Shown: positions 6,062-15,632 of the stretch, in pieces
How the letters are laid out: the number at the start of each line of letters is the position of its first letter
Numbering within the stretch: position 1 is the stretch's first letter
From: Escherichia coli
Lineage (GTDB): Bacteria > Pseudomonadota > Gammaproteobacteria > Enterobacterales > Enterobacteriaceae
DNA length: 64,000 bases
Assembly (NCBI RefSeq): GCF_036507355.1
Contig: NZ_AP027877.1
Strand: one strand, 5' to 3'
The notes under the pieces: generated by a model
Told to the model about the DNA's origin: nothing
The model's database searches: none
Seen by the model: the letters and a program-made list of their open reading frames with translations, nothing else
Made by a program: the position numbers and the translations under genes

Positions 6062-9000
6062 TTATCTGTTTAGCGTTGCGCGAATAATCGGCCCAATTTT
6101 TTCAAATGCCCCTGGAGAGATAATATCCACATGCGCACAATCCTGACGATAGATATCCAGCTCCGCAATCCACGGCGACCAGGCGCGTTCAGGACTCATA
6201 CCTTCCTGAAGCGTGCGTTCAGCAACAAACAACGTCGCTTTACCGTCAAACGGTACGCTATGAGCAGTCGTCAGCAGGCGCACAGCATCAGCGTAGTTGC
6301 CTTCAATGGTGGTAAACAGCTCCGTTGAAGTACTTCCCTGCTGTGCCGCCAGGAAGGCCTCGCGCTCGCAGTTAATCTCCGCCAGCACTTCCGGGTCCAG
6401 ACCATTAGCTTCTTTTTCCTGCCAGTTTTGCGTTTCTGGCGGCCAGGTATCCAGCAAGCCAAGAAATGCCACCTGTTCGCCACGGGCACGCAGCCGCGCC
6501 GCAATCCCCTGCGCCAGCGTACCGCCCAGCGAATAACCCAGCAGGTAATAAGGGCCGTGCGGTTGTTGCTCAAGTAACGTTGCCAGATGCGCTTCGCAGA
6601 CTTCATCCAGGTTCGTCGCTGTCTGCATGGGGCCATGAGGGCGCGGCGACTGAATGCCGATAATCGACCATAGTGGATCGAGATAACGCGAGAGCACGCT
6701 AAACTGCCAGGCAAAACCGGATGCCGGATGGAAACAAAACAGCGTCGGGCCATTACCTTCACGCAACGGCAGAATGGTTTCGAATCCCATGCGCCGGGAG
6801 CTGTCCTCTTCACCATCAATAATCGTTGCCAGTTTGGCGACGGTTGACGCGACCATCACCTGCCCCGGCGTCACCTGACGGGCAAACTGCCGACTTAACT
6901 GCGCTGCCAGTTTCATTGCCAGTAGCGAATGACCGCCAAGCGCGAAGAAATCAGCATCGGCATCCTGCACGTCACAACCCAGCAACGACGCGAATGCCGC
7001 AGCGATAATCGTTTCACTGCCCGCTTTCGGCGCACGCCCCGGCGTTTGTGCCTTAAGTTCAGGCAACGGTAAGGCTTTGCGATCCAGCTTGCCGTTGGCG
7101 CTAAGAGGTAACTGTGGAAGTTGCAGCAGAACGACCGGCACCATATGCGGCGGCAATGTTTCGCGAAGCTGTGCCTGTAATGCGCTGGTATCCAACGGCA
7201 GACCTGATTGCGACACCAGATAGCCCACCAACTGACGCGCATCACCACCGGTGGCTGCCGCCTGGTTAATCACACAGGCGTGGGTAACGGCTTGTTCGAC
7301 ATCCGGCAGCGCCTGCATCACGCGATCGATTTCGCCCAGTTCGATACGCTGCCCGCGAATTTTTAGCTGATCGTCACTGCGCCCGAGGTACTCCACCGCG
7401 CCGTTATCCAGCCAGCGGGCAACGTCTCCGGTACGATACATCCGTTCACCTGGGGCAAAAGGATCGGCAATAAAACGGCTGGCGGTCAGATCGGGTCTTC
7501 CAAGATACCCCTGCGCCAGTTGAATGCCGGTGAGATAGAGATCACCCGCCACACCCGGCGGCACCGGATGCATCATCGCATCAAGAATACGCAGACCCGT
7601 ATTCCACACCGGATAACCAATCGGCACACTGCTGCCGCGCACCTGTGCCAGTTCCTCGCCAAAAGCCGGATACCAGCTCACATCTACCGCCGCTTCCGTC
7701 GGGCCATATAGATTATGCAACGGCGCGCCCGTTAACTGTTGCCATTCGCGGCATAAATCAGCCGGTAAGGCCTCACCACTACAGAAAACCTGTTTCAACG
7801 TCGCGCAATTCTGGCGAGCGGTTTGCGGAGTCAGCGATGCAACAAATGCCGCCAGCATCGACGGCACAAAGTGCGTGGTCGTTACGCCATATTCGGCAAA
7901 GAATTGCTGCATAGCGAGCGGGTCGCGGTGCGCTTCCGGTTCAGCCATCACTAGTTTAGCCCCGGCAATAAACGGCCAGAAAAACTCCCACACCGAGACA
8001 TCAAAACTGCACGGCGTTTTTTGGGCAACGACATCTTCGCCTGTAAGCGGGTAGTGATTTTGCATCCATAACAGGCGGTTAACGATAGCCGTCTGCCCGA
8101 CCATTACCCCTTTCGGCCTGCCGGTGGAACCGGAGGTAAAGATGATATAAGCCGTGTGGTGCGGTTGTGAAAGTTGCAGCGGTGCACTGCCCTGCGGTGT
8201 AAGCGGGGCGTTATAGCAAAGGCTGGTTAAATCTGGAACATCGGCAAAGCGCGGCAGTTGATCGTCGGTGGTGATTAACAGCGACGGACGCGCATCTTCC
8301 AGCATCATTTTCAGGCGATCGTCCGGATAGCCGGTATCCAGCGGTAACCAGGCCGCACCAGCTTCAACAATTGCATGTAGCGCCAGAGTCAAAAATACCG
8401 AGCGCGGTAGCGCCACCGCCACGCTGTCGCCAGGTTTAACGCCGCGCTCACGCAGCAGATTCGCCAGCGCCACCACCTGCTCGCGCATTTCCCGATAGCT
8501 GAACTGGTAACGCGCATCTGCCAGCGCCGGAGCATCCGGTGTTTTTGCCGCTTGTTCTGCCACCAGCGCGCTAAGCGTGGTTTCTGGAATCTCAACCTGA
8601 GTGGCGTTGATCTGCGCCAACTGCGCATATTCACCTGGCAGCATAATATCGACATCGCCGCACAACAGCGCCGGATCCGCGGCTAATTGGGCGATCAGCA
8701 TTTTCAGGCGTTCAGCATGCTGGATTAACGTTGGCTCATCGTAACGCTGTTTATTGGCGAGGATCTCAATACTCAAATCACCGTGTTCATCCGGGAACAG
8801 GGCCAGTTCAAGGTCATTAACCGGACCGGTTGCCAGGGTATGGGTTTGCGCCTCAACATCAAGAATATCCAGTTGGTAATCAAATACCTTGATATTGAGT
8901 ACCGGACCAAACAGCGGTTCATCACCTGCCGCTCGCCCGCTGTCACGGACAATTTGTTCGGCATCGTAACGTTGATGGCGACGCATTTTTTTCAGTTGAG

Positions 9001-9943
9001 CCGCCAGTCGGGTTGCCAGTTCCGGCAGCGTTTCTTGTGCCGCAATGTGAATACCCAACGGCAAAACGTTGAGCACAGGTCCGGTAGCCGTCAGCGCCGC
9101 CGACCCCAGTCGACGCATAAAGATAAATCCGGCAGCGTAGTCCATGCGATTGCACAATCGCCCCAGCCACAAAGCCGCCAGCGCAAGAGCTAAATCGGTA
9201 CGCTGCACACCTGAAAGTTGCATAGCCAGCTGGCGGAATTCCCCGTCGGTAAATTCCAGTTTCAGGCGCAGAATATCTGCCGAAGCGCTGCGCCCCGGTA
9301 AAGGTGCCGGAGAAAGTGACGCGGGCGGTGGCAGTTGACGACGCTGTTCCGCCCAGAATGCTGCATCACGCTGCCAGGCTTCGCTTTCGCGGTATTGCTG
9401 GTACTCTCCCACTACATCAGCGAAAGGCGTAAACGGCGAAGCAGGCGTTGGTTCGCCACGCAGTAATGCGCAGTAAATGTTGGCGATCTGCCGGGTAATG
9501 GCCGGGAAACTGAAGCCATCGACCAGCAAATGGTGATAACGCTGATACCAGTACCAGCGGTTATCTGCCACCTGTATCAGCTGGTGAAAGACCAGTGGTT
9601 TACCGCTATCGACGCGCAAATCTTGTTGCAAATCCGCCTGCATTAATGCCTGCGCAGTACCGTGCGGATCAATGTTGGTTCGCAGGTCGATAATTTCTGG
9701 CAGTTCGAATATCAGCGCATCATCGACCCATTGCCAGACTTCGCCGTTATCTTCCGTAAAACGCATCCGCAACGTATCTGCTTGCGCTAATCCGGCAACC
9801 ACCGCGCGGGCCAGTAATGGCGCATCAACCTCTCCGGTTAACTCAACGTAATGCGCCACGCTCCAGGCGGAGGGTAAATCCGACAGTTTTTCTGCCATCC
9901 AGATGCCGGGCTGTGCGGCTACCAAAGGTAAATGCTGGCTCAT
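6062..9943 (-). CDS. entF: Enterobactin synthase component F (NRPS, C-A-PCP-TE, serine-activating)
   Basis: 1293-aa ORF; adenylation core motifs (YIIFTSGSTGRPKGV, YRTGDVAR, GRSDDQLKIRGQRIELGEI), PCP site (LGGHSLLAMKLA) and thioesterase GYSLGG motif visible in the translation. Confidence 0.97.
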   Translation of the reverse strand: MSQHLPLVAAQPGIWMAEKLSDLPSAWSVAHYVELTGEVDAPLLARAVVAGLAQADTLRMRFTEDNGEVWQWVDDALIFELPEIIDLRTNIDPHGTAQALMQADLQQDLRVDSGKPLVFHQLIQVADNRWYWYQRYHHLLVDGFSFPAITRQIANIYCALLRGEPTPASPFTPFADVVGEYQQYRESEAWQRDAAFWAEQRRQLPPPASLSPAPLPGRSASADILRLKLEFTDGEFRQLAMQLSGVQRTDLALALAALWLGRLCNRMDYAAGFIFMRRLGSAALTATGPVLNVLPLGIHIAAQETLPELATRLAAQLKKMRRHQRYDAEQIVRDSGRAAGDEPLFGPVLNIKVFDYQLDILDVEAQTHTLATGPVNDLELALFPDEHGDLSIEILANKQRYDEPTLIQHAERLKMLIAQLAADPALLCGDVDIMLPGEYAQLAQINATQVEIPETTLSALVAEQAAKTPDAPALADARYQFSYREMREQVVALANLLRERGVKPGDSVAVALPRSVFLTLALHAIVEAGAAWLPLDTGYPDDRLKMMLEDARPSLLITTDDQLPRFADVPDLTSLCYNAPLTPQGSAPLQLSQPHHTAYIIFTSGSTGRPKGVMVGQTAIVNRLLWMQNHYPLTGEDVVAQKTPCSFDVSVWEFFWPFIAGAKLVMAEPEAHRDPLAMQQFFAEYGVTTTHFVPSMLAAFVASLTPQTARQNCATLKQVFCSGEALPADLCREWQQLTGAPLHNLYGPTEAAVDVSWYPAFGEELAQVRGSSVPIGYPVWNTGLRILDAMMHPVPPGVAGDLYLTGIQLAQGYLGRPDLTASRFIADPFAPGERMYRTGDVARWLDNGAVEYLGRSDDQLKIRGQRIELGEIDRVMQALPDVEQAVTHACVINQAAATGGDARQLVGYLVSQSGLPLDTSALQAQLRETLPPHMVPVVLLQLPQLPLSANGKLDRKALPLPELKAQTPGRAPKAGSETIIAAAFASLLGCDVQDADADFFALGGHSLLAMKLAAQLSRQFARQVTPGQVMVASTVAKLATIIDGEEDSSRRMGFETILPLREGNGPTLFCFHPASGFAWQFSVLSRYLDPLWSIIGIQSPRPHGPMQTATNLDEVCEAHLATLLEQQPHGPYYLLGYSLGGTLAQGIAARLRARGEQVAFLGLLDTWPPETQNWQEKEANGLDPEVLAEINCEREAFLAAQQGSTSTELFTTIEGNYADAVRLLTTAHSVPFDGKATLFVAERTLQEGMSPERAWSPWIAELDIYRQDCAHVDIISPGAFEKIGPIIRATLNR

Positions 9944-10158
9944 TGTGCCTCCTGCAACTGGGTGAAATTCGCCGGTGTCAGAGTACGCCAGTGGGCTTCA
10001 AGCCACTGCTGGCAGGACTCTTGTGACTGCGGCTGACACACAATGTCCCAGCCTGCCGGTAAGGCGCATTGTTGCGGCCACAGACTGAATTGCCCCTGCG
10101 CATTGCGCAAAATGTAAAACACTCCCTGTGGATCATCGAAGGGATTACTGAATGCCAT
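9940..10158 (-). CDS. ybdZ: MbtH-like protein YbdZ
   Basis: 72 aa from the ATG at 10158 (MAFSNPFDDPQG...); MbtH-like tryptophan-containing motif; stop overlaps the entF start (ATGA). Confidence 0.9.
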   Translation of the reverse strand: MAFSNPFDDPQGVFYILRNAQGQFSLWPQQCALPAGWDIVCQPQSQESCQQWLEAHWRTLTPANFTQLQEAQ

Positions 10159-10160
10159 AT

Positions 10161-11363
10161 TCAACTCCTGTCATGGAAAAGTGGTTGCCAGAGGTCGATT
10201 AACCCCTGCATCAAGCCACCGCGCCAACAAAGCGCATCATGTCCGCCGTCAACCTGACGCCAGAAAATGGATTCTTTTATAGGGTGCAATTGCGCATACA
10301 GCGCCTGATTGGCCCGCATGATCATCGGCTCGCGAATACCCGCTTCCAGCACAATGCGCAGACCTTCGGCGCTAACTTCACCAGCTTTTAGCTTTTCAAG
10401 TAACACGCCCTCTTGCTGCCCGCCCCGATGCGGCCACCAGTACGATCCTGACTGGCTTAATACACAGCCAAAGCGTTCAGGCCAGTGCAGTCCGGCATAC
10501 AGCGCGGACAGCCCACCAAAACTCTGCCCGGCGACCACGGTGCGATCGGCGCGATCGCTAAAAGGGGCAATAGCTTTCACCAGGGGTAATAACTCTTGCT
10601 GTACTGCCAGCCAGAAATCCGCATTACACGGCAGTTCGTGGGCGCGGTGCGTGGTGTCGATAGCGTCGATCAACACATACACGGCGGGAGGAAGTTGCTG
10701 ACGATGGGTCAGCGAAGTCAGCACAGGCCAGACGGGCATACTTTGCGCCCAAAATTCGCCATCGAGCAAAACTGCCAGCGGGCGTTCTTCTGCTGTTACA
10801 TCGCCGGTGGTAAAAATCCATACACGACGTGAATTTTTCAACCGTTCACTTTTCCAGATAATTTCTTTGGCTGGTATTTCTGGCGCTTGCGGACAATCCC
10901 ATCCCGGTTGCAGAGGCGCTTGCGGCATTTCGAGTGCAGAAACAGCGTGCCCTCGCCCGCCTTTCCAGCTTTGTGGATTCAGCGGATCGGCTATTGCCTG
11001 GGGTAATAGTTTTCGCCAGCCTTCACGTAATTCGAGGCGATCGGGGGATGGTGCAGAAAAAATGTCATCGCGTTCGGTGGGAATAAAGCAGTAGCTGCCG
11101 CGCCAGTTGGCATTGAGTTGTGTCGTCCACTGCCAGACATCAGTACCTGCAATTCGCTGCATCGACTGGGGCTGGCTGTTCTGATGATGATCGGTCACAC
11201 CAGTGATGTAGATCCATACGCGCTTTATCGTCGAGTATTCTTCAGAACCTTGGGGATCACGCCACCAGAAAGTGACCTCAAACATTTCGTCATTCAGACG
11301 CTGCCATTCCGGGCCATGTTTCGACTGCCACCAGCTCTCACTTCCTACTTTTAACGCCGTCAC
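10161..11363 (-). CDS. fes: Enterochelin esterase Fes
   Basis: 400-aa ORF from a GTG at 11363 (MTALKVGSESWW...); a shorter 374-aa form from the internal ATG (MFEVTFWW) is possible; GQSFGG esterase motif present. Confidence 0.9.
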   Translation of the reverse strand: MTALKVGSESWWQSKHGPEWQRLNDEMFEVTFWWRDPQGSEEYSTIKRVWIYITGVTDHHQNSQPQSMQRIAGTDVWQWTTQLNANWRGSYCFIPTERDDIFSAPSPDRLELREGWRKLLPQAIADPLNPQSWKGGRGHAVSALEMPQAPLQPGWDCPQAPEIPAKEIIWKSERLKNSRRVWIFTTGDVTAEERPLAVLLDGEFWAQSMPVWPVLTSLTHRQQLPPAVYVLIDAIDTTHRAHELPCNADFWLAVQQELLPLVKAIAPFSDRADRTVVAGQSFGGLSALYAGLHWPERFGCVLSQSGSYWWPHRGGQQEGVLLEKLKAGEVSAEGLRIVLEAGIREPMIMRANQALYAQLHPIKESIFWRQVDGGHDALCWRGGLMQGLIDLWQPLFHDRS

Positions 11364-11413
11364 ACCATAACCCCATGTTTACTGTGCAATTTTTCATTGA
11401 TTGCAGAAATATA

Positions 11414-11450
11414 TTGATAATATTATTGATAACTATTTGCATTTGCAATA
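11414..11450. promoter_or_regulatory. Overlapping Fur boxes of the fes / fepA divergent promoters
   Basis: tgataatattattgataactatttgcatttgcaatag contains tandem GATAAT-type hexamer repeats typical of Fur operators, centred in the fes-fepA intergenic region. Confidence 0.7.
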
Positions 11451-11605
11451 GCGTAATGGCGCGCCGTGGGAAGCGCGGACATTAATTAACCAACTGCACT
11501 GCGTGTCTTTCAGGATCAAAGGTTTTCGCGGTAGCGGGATGCGTCGTGTTGATGACGACCATGCCCGACAGTTGCAATTCGTGGCAAAAATGCAGGAATA
11601 AAACA

Positions 11606-13846
11606 ATGAACAAGAAGATTCATTCCCTGGCCTTGTTGGTCAATCTGGGGATTTATGGGGTAGCGCAGGCACAAGAGCCGACCGATACTCCTGTTTCACA
11701 TGACGATACTATTGTCGTTACCGCCGCCGAGCAGAACTTACAGGCGCCTGGCGTTTCGACCATCACCGCAGATGAAATCCGCAAAAACCCCGTTGCCCGC
11801 GATGTGTCGGAGATCATCCGTACCATGCCAGGCGTTAACCTGACCGGTAACTCCACCAGTGGTCAGCGAGGGAATAACCGACAGATTGATATTCGCGGTA
11901 TGGGTCCGGAAAACACGCTGATTTTGATTGACGGCAAGCCGGTAAGCAGCCGTAACTCGGTGCGTCAGGGCTGGCGTGGCGAGCGCGATACCCGTGGTGA
12001 TACCTCCTGGGTGCCACCTGAAATGATTGAACGTATTGAAGTTCTGCGTGGTCCGGCAGCTGCGCGTTATGGCAACGGCGCGGCGGGCGGCGTAGTTAAC
12101 ATCATTACCAAAAAAGGCAGCGGCGAGTGGCACGGCTCCTGGGACGCATATTTCAATGCGCCAGAACATAAAGAGGAAGGTGCCACCAAACGCACTAACT
12201 TTAGCCTGACCGGTCCGCTGGGCGACGAATTCAGCTTCCGCTTGTATGGCAACCTCGACAAAACTCAGGCTGACGCGTGGGATATCAACCAGGGCCATCA
12301 GTCCGCGCGTGCCGGAACGTATGCCACGACGTTACCAGCCGGGCGCGAAGGGGTGATCAACAAAGATATTAATGGCGTGGTGCGCTGGGACTTCGCGCCT
12401 CTGCAATCACTCGAACTGGAAGCGGGTTACAGCCGCCAGGGTAACCTGTATGCGGGTGATACCCAGAACACCAACTCTGACGCTTACACTCGCTCGAAAT
12501 ATGGCGATGAAACCAACCGCCTGTATCGCCAGAACTACTCGCTGACCTGGAACGGTGGCTGGGATAACGGCGTGACCACCAGCAACTGGGTGCAGTACGA
12601 ACACACCCGTAACTCGCGTATTCCGGAAGGTCTGGCGGGCGGTACCGAAGGGAAATTTAACGAAAAAGCGACACAGGATTTCGTCGATATCGATCTTGAT
12701 GACGTGATGCTGCATAGCGAAGTTAACCTGCCGATTGATTTCCTCGTTAACCAGACGCTGACGCTGGGTACGGAGTGGAATCAGCAACGGATGAAGGACT
12801 TAAGTTCCAACACCCAGGCACTGACCGGAACGAATACCGGTGGCGCTATTGATGGCGTGAGTGCCACCGACCGTAGCCCGTATTCAAAAGCAGAAATTTT
12901 CTCGCTGTTTGCCGAAAACAACATGGAGCTGACTGACAGCACCATCGTAACGCCGGGGCTGCGTTTCGATCATCACAGTATTGTCGGCAATAACTGGAGC
13001 CCGGCGCTGAACATATCGCAAGGTTTAGGCGATGACTTCACGCTGAAAATGGGCATTGCCCGCGCCTATAAAGCGCCGAGCCTGTACCAGACTAACCCGA
13101 ACTACATTCTCTACAGTAAAGGTCAGGGCTGCTATGCCAGCGCGGGCGGCTGCTATCTGCAAGGTAACGATGACCTGAAAGCAGAAACCAGCATCAACAA
13201 AGAGATTGGTCTGGAGTTCAAACGCGACGGCTGGCTGGCGGGCATCACCTGGTTCCGTAACGATTATCGCAATAAGATTGAAGCAGGCTATGTTGCTGTA
13301 GGGCAAAACGCAGTCGGCACCGATCTCTATCAGTGGGATAACGTGCCGAAAGCGGTGGTTGAAGGTCTGGAAGGATCGTTAAACGTACCGGTTAGCGAAA
13401 CGGTGATGTGGACTAATAACATCACTTATATGCTGAAGAGTGAAAACAAAACCACGGGCGACCGTTTGTCGATCATCCCGGAGTATACGTTGAACTCAAC
13501 GCTGAGCTGGCAGGCACGAGAAGATTTGTCGATGCAAACGACCTTCACCTGGTACGGTAAGCAGCAGCCGAAGAAGTACAACTATAAAGGTCAGCCAGCG
13601 GTTGGACCGGAAACCAAAGAAATTAGTCCTTACAGCATTGTTGGGCTGAGCGCGACGTGGGATGTGACGAAGAATGTCAGTCTGACCGGCGGCGTGGACA
13701 ATCTGTTCGACAAACGTTTGTGGCGTGCGGGTAATGCCCAGACCACGGGCGATTTGGCAGGGGCCAACTATATCGCCGGTGCCGGGGCGTATACCTATAA
13801 CGAGCCGGGACGCACGTGGTATATGAGCGTAAACACCCACTTCTGA
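11606..13846 (+). CDS. fepA: TonB-dependent ferric enterobactin outer membrane receptor FepA
   Basis: 746 aa from the ATG at 11606 (MNKKIHSLALLVNLGIYGVAQA signal peptide); TonB box DTIVVTA; C-terminal aromatic residue (HF). Confidence 0.97.
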   Translation: MNKKIHSLALLVNLGIYGVAQAQEPTDTPVSHDDTIVVTAAEQNLQAPGVSTITADEIRKNPVARDVSEIIRTMPGVNLTGNSTSGQRGNNRQIDIRGMGPENTLILIDGKPVSSRNSVRQGWRGERDTRGDTSWVPPEMIERIEVLRGPAAARYGNGAAGGVVNIITKKGSGEWHGSWDAYFNAPEHKEEGATKRTNFSLTGPLGDEFSFRLYGNLDKTQADAWDINQGHQSARAGTYATTLPAGREGVINKDINGVVRWDFAPLQSLELEAGYSRQGNLYAGDTQNTNSDAYTRSKYGDETNRLYRQNYSLTWNGGWDNGVTTSNWVQYEHTRNSRIPEGLAGGTEGKFNEKATQDFVDIDLDDVMLHSEVNLPIDFLVNQTLTLGTEWNQQRMKDLSSNTQALTGTNTGGAIDGVSATDRSPYSKAEIFSLFAENNMELTDSTIVTPGLRFDHHSIVGNNWSPALNISQGLGDDFTLKMGIARAYKAPSLYQTNPNYILYSKGQGCYASAGGCYLQGNDDLKAETSINKEIGLEFKRDGWLAGITWFRNDYRNKIEAGYVAVGQNAVGTDLYQWDNVPKAVVEGLEGSLNVPVSETVMWTNNITYMLKSENKTTGDRLSIIPEYTLNSTLSWQAREDLSMQTTFTWYGKQQPKKYNYKGQPAVGPETKEISPYSIVGLSATWDVTKNVSLTGGVDNLFDKRLWRAGNAQTTGDLAGANYIAGAGAYTYNEPGRTWYMSVNTHF

Positions 13847-14661: not shown

Positions 14662-15130
14662 TCGCCCGCAGCCATCACTGACTGCGGGCGAAAGTGTAAA
14701 GCAGGTGCCTTACCACTCTGACCTGACAACCGGATATGCGGGGATTGCTCCCCGCACAACGGCTACTTCTTCGGTTCGTAAGCGAGAACAGCCTTAAACT
14801 CAATATTACGTTCCTTTACGGTGAACTCACACAGCGAGTCTCCGACCAGAAGCGTAAATCCCAGCACCGTCAAACACAGCACTATGACTGCCACAAGGGC
14901 ATATTTCGTCAGCATGTTTATATTGCCTCCATGCGAAGAAGGGACTACCATCCGAGTTGTTGAGGCTCGGAGTGGCAGCCCCAGGATTGATAGAAATATC
15001 TCCTGGGGCTTCATCTTTCCAGACCTCAGAGTTAACCTGAAACCGGAAAGCTTCAGGCACCCGCCGTTATCTTACCCTTCCTTAGCAAAATAGCTGTTTA
15101 TTTATACAGTGAATCCTGTTTCGGACTTCT
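14662..15130 (-). other. hokE-like type I toxin-antitoxin locus, copy 1 (repeat unit)
   Basis: About 470-bp unit containing a Hok toxin ORF, upstream mok-like leader and a terminal inverted repeat (cgcccgcag...ctgcgggcg); repeated with 503-bp period at 15165-15632. Confidence 0.8.
14763..14915 (-). CDS. hokE: Hok-family membrane toxin (HokE-like), copy 1
   Basis: 50-aa peptide [50 protein letters not shown], typical Hok/Gef toxin with one transmembrane helix. Confidence 0.85.
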
Positions 15131-15164: not shown

Positions 15165-15632
15165 TCGCCCGCAGCCATCACTGACCGCGGGCGAAAGTGT
15201 AAAGCAGGTGCCTTACCATCCTGACCTGACAACCGGATATGCGGGGATTACTCCCCGCACAACGGCTACTTCTTCGGTTCGTAAGCGAGAACAGCCCTGA
15301 ACTCAATATTACGTTCCTTCACCGTAAACTCACACAGCGAGTCTCCGACCAGAAGCGTAAATCCCAGTACCGTCAAACACAGCACTATGACTGCCACAAG
15401 GGCATATTTCGTCAGCATGTTTATATTGCCTCCATGCGAAGAAGGAACTACCATCCAAATTGTCTGGTTTGGAGTGGCAGCCCCAGGGTTGATAGAAATA
15501 TCTCCTGGGGCTTCATCTTTCCAGACCTCAGAGTAAACCTGAAACCGGAAAGCTTCAGGCACCCGCCGTTATCTTACCTTTGCTTAGCAAAATAGCTGTT
15601 TATTTATACAGTAAGTCCTGTTTCGGACTTCT
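15165..15632 (-). other. hokE-like type I toxin-antitoxin locus, copy 2 (repeat unit)
   Basis: Second unit, roughly 95% identical to copy 1 with scattered substitutions and a 1-nt indel in the leader. Confidence 0.8.
15266..15418 (-). CDS. Hok-family membrane toxin (HokE-like), copy 2
   Basis: 50-aa peptide identical to copy 1 except K41R (…[14 protein letters not shown]). Confidence 0.85.

Follow-up and report, generated by a model that had tools for sequence, protein, structure and literature searches.

GTG start of fes and close gene junctions in the fes–ybdZ–entF operon of Escherichia coli

The stretch of DNA that we analysed (the window, 64,000 nucleotides from Escherichia coli) carries the E. 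coli enterobactin operon fes–ybdZ–entF on its minus strand. Its three genes were placed as follows:

10161–11363, minus strand: fes, coding for the enterochelin (ferric-enterobactin) esterase, 400 aa and a TGA at 10163–10161 (open reading frame list, translation and RefSeq coordinates)
9940–10158, minus strand: ybdZ, coding for an MbtH-like protein, 72 aa and a TGA at 9942–9940 (translation and RefSeq annotation)
6062–9943, minus strand: entF, coding for the serine-activating NRPS, 1293 aa (open reading frame list and RefSeq annotation of the matching region)

A 1751-nt region of this locus was found in 5414 of 5426 complete E. coli genomes with 95–99.9% identity, and fes, ybdZ, entF and fepA are annotated there; the best match over the whole region was an O145:H28 strain (99.9% identity). 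The genes, their order and their junctions are the same in K-12 MG1655, where fes (b0585, NP_415117.2) lies at 612737–613939, ybdZ (b4511) at 613942–614160 and the start of entF (b0586) at 614157. Around the fes start, 170 nt of the window are identical to K-12 without a difference; Fes has 400 aa in both strains, with six amino-acid differences between the two proteins. The YbdZ of the window departs from that of K-12 at a few residues and is presumably a strain variant. In the literature the operon is called fes–ybdZ–entF–fepE.

The identity of the proteins was examined with family models. Fes matched NCBIfam NF007758 over residues 2–398 (709.4 bits, cut-off 222) and the Pfam families PF11806 (147 bits) and PF00756 (75 bits). 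The residues G279, Q280, S281, G283 and G284 of the GxSxG motif and G373, G374, H375 and D376 of the GGHD motif were invariant in 27 homologues; by analogy with alpha/beta hydrolases, the serine of GxSxG is the predicted nucleophile and the histidine of GGHD also has a predicted catalytic role. E. coli Fes reportedly hydrolyses (ferric) enterobactin. YbdZ matched the Pfam MbtH family PF03621 over residues 4–54 (76.4 bits, cut-off 27). Its gene adjoins and overlaps entF, and this synteny is found in most of 36 full-length homologous loci; as in other pairs of MbtH-like proteins and NRPSs, ybdZ lies in the window directly upstream of the gene for its NRPS partner, with which YbdZ forms a known complex (PDB 5JA1).

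Two codons compete for the start of Fes:

11361–11363, minus strand: GTG start codon of fes, the 3' GUG of a GUGUG and the sole in-frame ATG, GTG or TTG between the TAA at 11381–11379 and codon 27
11283–11285, minus strand: internal ATG (Met27, codon 27), the first in-frame ATG and the start of the old 374-aa annotation

The sequence-only reading had claimed that a 400-aa Fes needs the GTG at 11363 and that the first ATG would give 374 aa, 26 residues fewer; reading of the minus strand, the open reading frame list and the translation all bore this out. The interval from the TAA to the GTG consists of five sense codons (ACA TGG GGT TAT GGT), none of which is a start codon. By our own estimate, (61/64)^31, random sequence ahead of an ATG would stay open for about 31 codons roughly 1 time in 4–5. 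The geometry of the reading frame alone is thus within chance, so that the support for the GTG rests on comparative and structural evidence.

The GTG is present at the aligned position in Escherichia, Citrobacter, Leclercia and Enterobacter, and the tblastn match extends to query residues 1–7 in 37 loci, from Escherichia to Pseudomonas, Aeromonas and Iodobacter. In 27 sequences with 47–95% identity, W11, W12 and P18, all upstream of Met27, were invariant and G7 was nearly so. Across genera, codons 7–20 showed pS of 0.4–0.9 versus pN of 0.06–0.4, and G7 and S8 are encoded by differing synonymous codons. When the comparison was confined to the Escherichia clade, there was no excess of third-position changes in codons 2–26 (variable columns 5:5:6, versus 50:30:157 in the remainder of fes); pN/pS, calculated from few changes, was about 0.3 in these codons versus about 0.1 in the remainder. 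Since changes within Escherichia are too scarce and show no bias to third positions, the coding signal for codons 2–26 comes from the comparison between genera. The internal ATG is found in most E. coli sequences and is restricted to some sequences of Escherichia; Escherichia sp. MOD1 and E. albertii have AAT or ACT at codon 27 instead, and the ATG is missing in all other genera. In Salmonella Fes (3mga), DGNYRVTFWW stands in the place of DEMFEVTFWW here and position 27 is not Met, which leaves Salmonella without the alternative start.

The structures point in the same direction. In an AlphaFold2 model of Fes, residues 11–30 have pLDDT values of 94–95; this part of the model has a helix (9–13), a strand (19–22) and a further strand (27–35), of which Met27 is the first residue. 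The fold of the model agrees with the crystal structures 2b20 and 3c87 along its entire length, N-terminus included (TM-score 0.83–0.89 over 393–395 columns). Shigella flexneri Fes (PDB 2b20, 3c87, 3c8d, 3c8h) differs from the Fes of the window at 4 of 400 aligned residues, over residues 1–400; its crystal chains align with the 400-aa model over 395 columns, with as many as 391 residues resolved, and residues 11–30 are resolved in them. Salmonella Fes (3mga) is about 73% identical to Fes of the window over its full length, including residues 1–26. The crystallized constructs from both organisms start at the equivalent of the GTG codon, and in both proteins a beta domain at the N-terminus precedes an alpha/beta hydrolase. 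The stretch of 26 residues before Met27 is conserved and belongs integrally to the N-terminal domain; it is made up of a short helix with the invariant Trp-Trp pair and then a beta-strand.

We also looked for ribosome-binding sites upstream of both candidate starts, as the sequence-only reading had proposed, and the outcome weakly favours the GTG:

11370–11374, minus strand: weak SD-like GGGGU, 6 nt upstream of the GTG, within the conserved block AAACATGGGGTTAT (11380–11367)

The duplex of GGGGU with the 3' end of 16S rRNA has an energy of -5.9 kcal/mol, which falls within the background of 25-mers inside fes (mean -4.7, sd 2.7). The AAACATGGGGTTAT block is kept across 13 enterobacterial loci, where the variants GAGGT, AAGGT, GGAGT and AGGGT are all complementary to the anti-SD. 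For the internal ATG, the best anti-SD pairing (-3.9 kcal/mol) lies 17 nt upstream and nothing was found at a usable spacing. It has been published that fes, like focA, ycgY, yoaA and yahE, is without a canonical SD, defined as at least four Watson-Crick pairs (PMC9841429). The weak but conserved GGGGU would be the element that serves the fes GTG.

How Fes starts can be set against two other readings. That translation begins at ATG 11285, giving 374 aa, and that the 26 upstream codons are an untranslated leader open by chance, agrees with the original published start and the original RefSeq annotation, with the former place of fes among the EcoGene N-terminally verified proteins (PMC4512697) and with the persistence of the 374-aa form in some records; in addition, ATG is a better initiator than GTG, and the Pfam model of the N-terminal domain begins only at Fes residue 29. 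These points are met by the absence of the Met27 ATG from E. albertii, Escherichia sp. MOD1, Citrobacter, Salmonella and all other genera, by the conservation of the preceding codons as protein (invariant W11, W12 and P18, pS far above pN), by the lack of an SD at usable spacing before ATG 11285, and by residues 11–26, which are folded with confidence in the model and resolved in crystals. Peptides upstream of Met27 detected by mass spectrometry are also reported, at second hand, in PMC4512697, which cites Krug 2013. We find a start at ATG 11285 scarcely credible, and a 374-aa-only Fes is in effect refuted already by the comparative data.

A mixed mode, in which the GTG is used mostly and some E. 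coli strains make a Met27 isoform of 374 aa as well, would account for the N-terminus of 1988; a shorter N-terminus of Fes was indeed reported earlier (PMC4512697), internal starts occur in E. coli, and the Met27 ATG is present in most of its sequences. A shorter Fes species could equally come from proteolysis or from an expression construct, however, and the internal ATG is not preceded by an SD and varies even inside the genus Escherichia. Moreover, Met27 opens a beta-strand, and the isoform would lose strand 19–22, its hairpin partner, together with the Trp-Trp helix, so that it would probably misfold. We therefore regard dual initiation as very improbable. Initiation of Fes at GTG 11363 is strongly supported; the product would be a two-domain esterase of 400 aa, and the 374-aa form would be an old annotation error and not an isoform.

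The present records agree with this start. The same fes GTG is annotated in RefSeq K-12 (NP_415117.2) and in six other E. coli genome records that we inspected; the 400-aa sequence is that of FES_ECOLI, and the 374-aa form is left in a few older records only. According to PMC4512697, fes was taken out of the EcoGene verified set when shotgun mass spectrometry (Krug 2013) showed that the published N-terminus was 26 aa short, and by 2015 the RefSeq start had been shifted 78 nt upstream. In Table 3 of PMC9841429, fes is one of 12 genes listed with a gtGTG start and is not discussed individually. Fes peptides were absent from the TRAINSPOTTER N-terminomics supplements, and fes goes unmentioned in the EcoGene 3.0 paper. 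The start of fes was mis-annotated from 1988 until about 2013. The predicted tryptic peptides of Fes ahead of Met27 are VGSESWWQSK, HGPEWQR and LNDEMFEVTFWWR.

The GUGUG at the fes start has a peculiar context in the window:

11360–11368, minus strand: mini-ORF of two codons, AUG GUG UGA, which is out of frame and overlaps the fes start, as read from the sequence

Compared with the other genes with a GUGUG start (PMC9841429), the 5' GUG of fes has an AUG before it and a UGA directly after it. Mis-initiation there would yield a product of one or two codons, not an overlapping protein. When we calculated aligned spacings by the measure of PMC9841429, the 5' GUG had about 13 (the optimum), the fes GUG 15 and the AUG 10. 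In Citrobacter, Leclercia and Enterobacter there is one extra base between GGGGTTAT and the GTG, which in Citrobacter places the ATG in frame. A 1-nt deletion in Escherichia, relative to these three genera, might have created AUG-GUG-UGA, and start-stop initiation there might lose a share of the ribosomes or let them reinitiate at the fes GUG. If true, this context would hold back the synthesis of Fes, in this genus only, in comparison with YbdZ and EntF and their much stronger SDs; we consider the idea very improbable.

Further upstream lies the region shared with the divergent fepA gene:

11420–11448, minus strand: probable fes promoter hexamers TTGCAA and TAATAT with 17 nt between them, picked by eye, in the Fur-box block common to fepA

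Across 13 loci, the Fur-box block TATTGCAAATGCAAATAGTTATCAATAATATTATCAA hardly varies. The fepA–fes promoter is said to be bidirectional and regulated by Fur, reportedly from the work of Pettis in 1988 and of Hunt in 1994. A scan of the fepA–fes intergenic region with consensus promoters did not call a fes promoter, the hexamers picked by eye falling under the threshold with 8 of 12 matches, so that the transcription start site is placed by inference only. The RNA of the fes leader was no more structured than shuffled controls (z = -0.04), and a scan of positions 9700–11800 against Rfam gave no RNA family at E<=1. The region is the 5' part of the Fur-regulated fes–ybdZ–entF(–fepE) operon, which would be transcribed along the minus strand from the bidirectional fepA–fes control region. 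In a paper on CsrA, a translational fusion of fes was repressed by Fur and not regulated by CsrA; the start codon was not addressed there. A 'hypothetical protein' placed by PGAP in the fepA leader was rejected as a gene, as it has an in-frame TAA in the window.

At the two downstream junctions, the following features were found:

10156–10163, minus strand: fes–ybdZ junction TGA, AT, ATG, with the two bases AT (10160–10159) before the ybdZ ATG at 10158
10165–10169, minus strand: ybdZ SD AGGAG within the last fes codons, 6 nt before the ATG (-9.5 kcal/mol)
9940–9943, minus strand: ATGA overlap of the entF start (9943–9941) with the ybdZ stop, as read from the sequence
9948–9953, minus strand: entF SD AGGAGG within the 3' end of ybdZ, 4 nt before the ATG (-10.3 kcal/mol)

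Reading of the minus strand thus confirmed the earlier claim that the fes stop lies 2 nt before the ybdZ start and that the ybdZ stop and the entF start share an ATGA. A TTG at 10164 was considered as the ybdZ start (74 aa) and rejected; it abuts the SD without a spacer, and the homologues begin at the ATG. The ybdZ SD region ACAGGAGTT is kept in Escherichia, Citrobacter, Kluyvera and Enterobacter and the entF SD region GCAGGAGG in Escherichia and Citrobacter. The 2-nt gap between fes and ybdZ is specific to Escherichia: fes of Citrobacter ends about 30 nt earlier, Kluyvera and Enterobacter have a gap of 15–16 nt, and among enterobacterial genera the gap ranges from -1 to +31 nt. An ATGA or GTGA between ybdZ and entF was found in Escherichia, Citrobacter, Kluyvera, Leclercia, one Enterobacter locus and two Pseudomonas loci, and the overlap is maintained in most of the Enterobacteriaceae loci examined. 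Gaps of -4 to +2 nt occur at 6 of the 10 co-directional junctions of the ent/fep cluster, so tight junctions alone are no more than the norm of this cluster.

The sequence-only reading had further called the three genes translationally coupled. The geometry stood: at both junctions the stop and the start overlap or lie a few nucleotides apart, with the downstream SD inside the upstream reading frame. As a statement of fact the claim went beyond what can be read from the sequence, given the strong SDs of the downstream genes and the unstructured junctions. Folding of the junction RNAs gave z-scores of +0.86 and +1.69, that is, less structure than in the shuffles and no masked ribosome-binding site. 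With no more structure than in shuffled RNA, nothing enforces a dependence on upstream translation, and the model in which coupling acts by unmasking of structure is unsupported; a downstream ribosome-binding site masked by structure is one route to coupling and not a requirement. The tight junctions might instead reflect compaction of the operon, ybdZ and entF being translated mainly de novo from their own SDs, independently of the upstream cistron. The strength of these SDs, the lack of a hairpin that would need unmasking, the equally tight junctions elsewhere in the cluster and the variable fes–ybdZ gap in other genera are all in keeping with this. The retention of the ybdZ–entF overlap in most Enterobacteriaceae loci and in two Pseudomonas loci is less easily reconciled with it, the YbdZ–EntF complex offers a motive for linked synthesis, and the title of a 1987 paper (Pettis & McIntosh) speaks of coupled expression of fes and entF. 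Compaction with independent translation is a possible explanation, though in our opinion rather less likely than not.

Translational coupling of fes–ybdZ–entF is plausible. Ribosomes ending one cistron would be placed to start the next, with the SD inside the preceding reading frame and the stop and start close together, and termination-reinitiation would contribute to expression. The arrangement of the junctions probably helps to match the synthesis of the small MbtH-like YbdZ to that of EntF, its NRPS partner, a purpose as conjectural as reinitiation itself. Directly shown are the coordinates, the conservation at the protein level, the place of the N-terminus in the fold of Fes and what the annotation now says. 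Taken as a whole, the explanation that this is the fes–ybdZ–entF operon, that Fes is made from GTG 11363 and that the downstream junctions are placed for reinitiation is very probable.

It is clear that the GTG start and the tight junctions are real, yet both are already in the reference annotation and the literature; the finding is correct, ordinary and known, and has little weight beyond quality control. In that respect, the reading from sequence alone arrived at the fes start now accepted and at the geometry of the operon junctions. Three details we have seen nowhere else: conservation of the internal ATG fails even inside the genus Escherichia, the ribosome-binding block of fes is kept across genera, and the 2-nt fes–ybdZ junction arose by an Escherichia-specific C-terminal extension of fes. 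The correct start also has practical weight, as a construct of 374 aa would miss a helix and a strand that are conserved in the N-terminal domain.

The window is Escherichia coli DNA. The 1751 bases around fes, ybdZ and entF were matched in 5414 of 5426 complete E. coli genomes at 95–99.9% identity; the top match was an O145:H28 strain, and the genes annotated beneath the match are fepA, fes, ybdZ and entF. The sequence-only reading had placed the start of fes at a GTG and described fes, ybdZ and entF as translationally coupled. Reading of the minus strand, the ORF list and the translations bore out all of its coordinates, and the features are as follows:

11381–11379, minus strand: in-frame TAA 5' of fes, followed by five non-start codons before the GTG
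11363 (GTG) to 10163–10161 (TGA), minus strand: fes ORF, 400 codons
11285, minus strand: first in-frame ATG of fes, codon 27, from which the product would be 374 aa
10158 (ATG) to 9942–9940 (TGA), minus strand: ybdZ, 72 aa
9943 (ATG), minus strand: start of entF, 1293 aa, sharing ATGA with the ybdZ TGA

Two bases separate the fes stop from the ybdZ ATG. The gene identities also hold, as Fes matched NCBIfam NF007758 (709 bits) together with Pfam Enterochelin_N and Esterase, and YbdZ matched Pfam MbtH.

By chance a frame often stays open for about 30 codons 5' of an ATG, and ORF geometry alone proves little; we take the comparative evidence to be decisive for the GTG question. We fetched 37 loci with Fes relatives, from Escherichia species, Citrobacter, Kluyvera, Leclercia, Enterobacter, Erwinia, Mangrovibacter, Rahnella, Pseudomonas, Iodobacter and Aeromonas. 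Homology extended to residues 1–7 of E. coli Fes in essentially all of them, and in an alignment of 27 sequences (47–95% identity) W11, W12 and P18 were invariant and G7 nearly so. Salmonella Fes has DGNYRVTFWW at the site of E. coli DEMFEVTFWW. Over codons 7–20, synonymous divergence greatly exceeded non-synonymous divergence across genera (in Citrobacter, pN 0.06–0.12 vs pS 0.4–0.75); between genera the G7 codon is GGA, GGC, GGG or GGT and the S8 codon AGT or AGC. This excess indicates that the stretch 5' of Met27 is translated and that purifying selection acts on it. Even within Escherichia the internal ATG varies, codon 27 being AAT in Escherichia sp. MOD1 and ACT in E. albertii, and no Met was found at this position among the aligned Fes sequences of any non-Escherichia genus. 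The GTG is the sole in-frame start codon 5' of Met27 in Escherichia, and the aligned position is also GTG in Citrobacter, Leclercia and Enterobacter. The GTG start is thus supported by conserved coding sequence 5' of an unconserved ATG.

Within the Escherichia clade, codons 2–26 (11283–11363, minus strand) showed few synonymous changes, with pN/pS of about 0.3 vs about 0.1 in the rest of the gene, and no third-position excess (variable columns 5:5:6 vs 50:30:157). This pattern suggests relaxed protein constraint plus an extra RNA constraint at the 5' end.

The N-terminus was also examined in an alignment-based AlphaFold2 model (mean pLDDT 81). Residues 11–30 had pLDDT of 94–95, and the model contains a short helix at 9–13, carrying the Trp-Trp pair, and strands at 19–22 and 27–35. 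Met27 is the first residue of the latter strand in the model, and the 374-aa protein would lose that strand's neighbours. Crystal constructs of Shigella flexneri Fes contain the full 400 residues, and up to 391 resolved residues of a chain aligned across 395 columns of the model, which means that order in the crystals extends to most of the 26 added residues. The match to Pfam PF11806 (Enterochelin_N) does not start until residue 29, despite the invariant W11, W12 and P18 in the 27 homologues (Fes 1–28, 11280–11363); the NCBIfam Fes model, unlike PF11806, has 13 additional N-terminal positions. Inconsistent start annotations appear to have been carried into the domain models.

Both candidate starts were inspected for a Shine-Dalgarno (SD) sequence, a check that the sequence-only reading had proposed, and the outcome leaned weakly towards the GTG. 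The GTG is preceded, at a 6-nt spacer, by GGGGU, whose duplex with the 16S 3' end (−5.9 kcal/mol) is weak and lies inside the background of fes-internal 25-mers (mean −4.7, sd 2.7). The internal ATG has no usable SD, its best anti-SD pairing (−3.9 kcal/mol) being 17 nt away. GGGGU lies within the block AAACATGGGGTTAT (11367–11380, minus strand), which in 13 enterobacterial loci was more conserved than the adjacent first fes codons. Its variable positions give GGGGT, GAGGT, AAGGT, GGAGT or AGGGT, all still complementary to the anti-SD, as a functional SD should look. The distance from GGGGTTAT to the GTG is one base shorter in Escherichia than in Citrobacter, Leclercia and Enterobacter; because of this missing base, the Escherichia reading frame excludes an ATG that Citrobacter has in frame two codons 5' of the GTG. 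In another frame the fes start context reads AUG GUG UGA (11360–11368, minus strand), an out-of-frame mini-ORF of two codons that overlaps the fes GUG, and fes is among 12 E. coli genes reported to start at the 3' GUG of GUGUG without a canonical SD (PMC9841429). By our calculation of aligned spacing, the out-of-frame 5' GUG is placed at least as well as the fes GUG, so that abortive 'start-stop' initiation by some ribosomes is conceivable, though unlikely.

Two other frames were noticed near the fes leader. A 19-codon ORF (11338–11397, minus strand; ATG at 11397, MKNCTVNMGLWCDGVKSRK*) runs across the fes start in a different frame; where it has ATG, E. albertii, E. whittamii and Escherichia sp. 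MOD1 have ATA, and this unconserved ORF is probably meaningless. Some RefSeq E. coli genomes carry in the fepA leader a 66-aa 'hypothetical protein', WP_001174912.1 (11401–11601, plus strand), whose end lies 4 nt short of the fepA ATG. This call is very likely spurious, since the frame in the window has an in-frame TAA (LQ*RNG vs LQYRNG).

The whole finding, GTG start and junctions, is already known and annotated. RefSeq fes of E. coli K-12 MG1655 (612737–613939, NP_415117.2) likewise encodes 400 aa, and six further E. coli genome records that we inspected use the same GTG. Over the 141 bases surrounding the start, the window and K-12 do not differ, and identity is at least 99% in 4390 genomes and 95% or more in all 5414. 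The 400-aa sequence equals UniProt FES_ECOLI, and the only records still giving the 374-aa form are a few older ones from K-12 derivatives. The literature history is second-hand, through PMC4512697, which reports that shotgun MS (Krug 2013) showed the N-terminus published by Pettis et al. to be 26 aa too short, that fes was for this reason dropped from EcoGene's verified genes, and that RefSeq shifted the start 78 nt upstream.

The junction geometry is equally real, with the 2-nt gap, the ATGA overlap and each SD within the preceding ORF: AGGAG (10169–10165; −9.5 kcal/mol) inside fes, 6 nt before the ybdZ ATG, and AGGAGG (9953–9948; −10.3 kcal/mol) inside ybdZ, 4 nt before the entF ATG. The junction RNAs showed no excess of structure over shuffled sequence (z = +0.86 and +1.69). 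With both SDs strong and the RNAs unstructured, independent initiation is perfectly possible, and nothing at the junctions would enforce dependence on upstream translation. Tight junctions are moreover the rule within the ent/fep cluster, where co-directional gaps are +2, −4, −4, −4, −1, +2, +9, +13, +174 and +215 nt. As judged from the loci compared, conservation of the two junctions is unequal. The ybdZ/entF overlap, ATGA or GTGA, recurs in Escherichia, Citrobacter, Kluyvera, Leclercia, one Enterobacter locus and two Pseudomonas loci, whereas a 2-nt fes/ybdZ gap is confined to Escherichia and a few others (the distance is 30–31 nt in Citrobacter, 15–16 nt in Kluyvera and Enterobacter). Linked synthesis of YbdZ and EntF would be biologically reasonable, given that these proteins form a complex (PDB 5JA1). 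Translational coupling as a whole is plausible; from ybdZ to entF it is likely to be real, and from fes to ybdZ it is possible.

Escherichia fes reads through ttccaCgacaggagttgaGt, which is intergenic in Citrobacter. Its last codons (FHDRS*, 10161–10190, minus strand) are homologous to the 30-nt Citrobacter fes-ybdZ spacer, ybdZ SD included (fetched loci L008–L012, L039, about 2690–2750), so that the 2-nt junction comes from a fes C-terminal extension specific to the genus. Residues 398–400, at the end of this tail, were modelled as disordered (pLDDT below 50).

Elsewhere in the cluster, in the annotation of NZ_CP007133.1 (600–620 kb), fepD/fepG and fepG/fepC each share 4 nt and entB/entA shares 1 nt, entA and entH are 2 nt apart, and the 3' ends of the convergent fepE and fepC have a 4-nt overlap. 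Beyond entD there are two tandem 50-aa hokE toxin ORFs (14763–14915 and 15266–15418, minus strand) differing in one residue (R/K); their placement is that of the O145:H28 reference genome, and K-12 has IS186 near that position.
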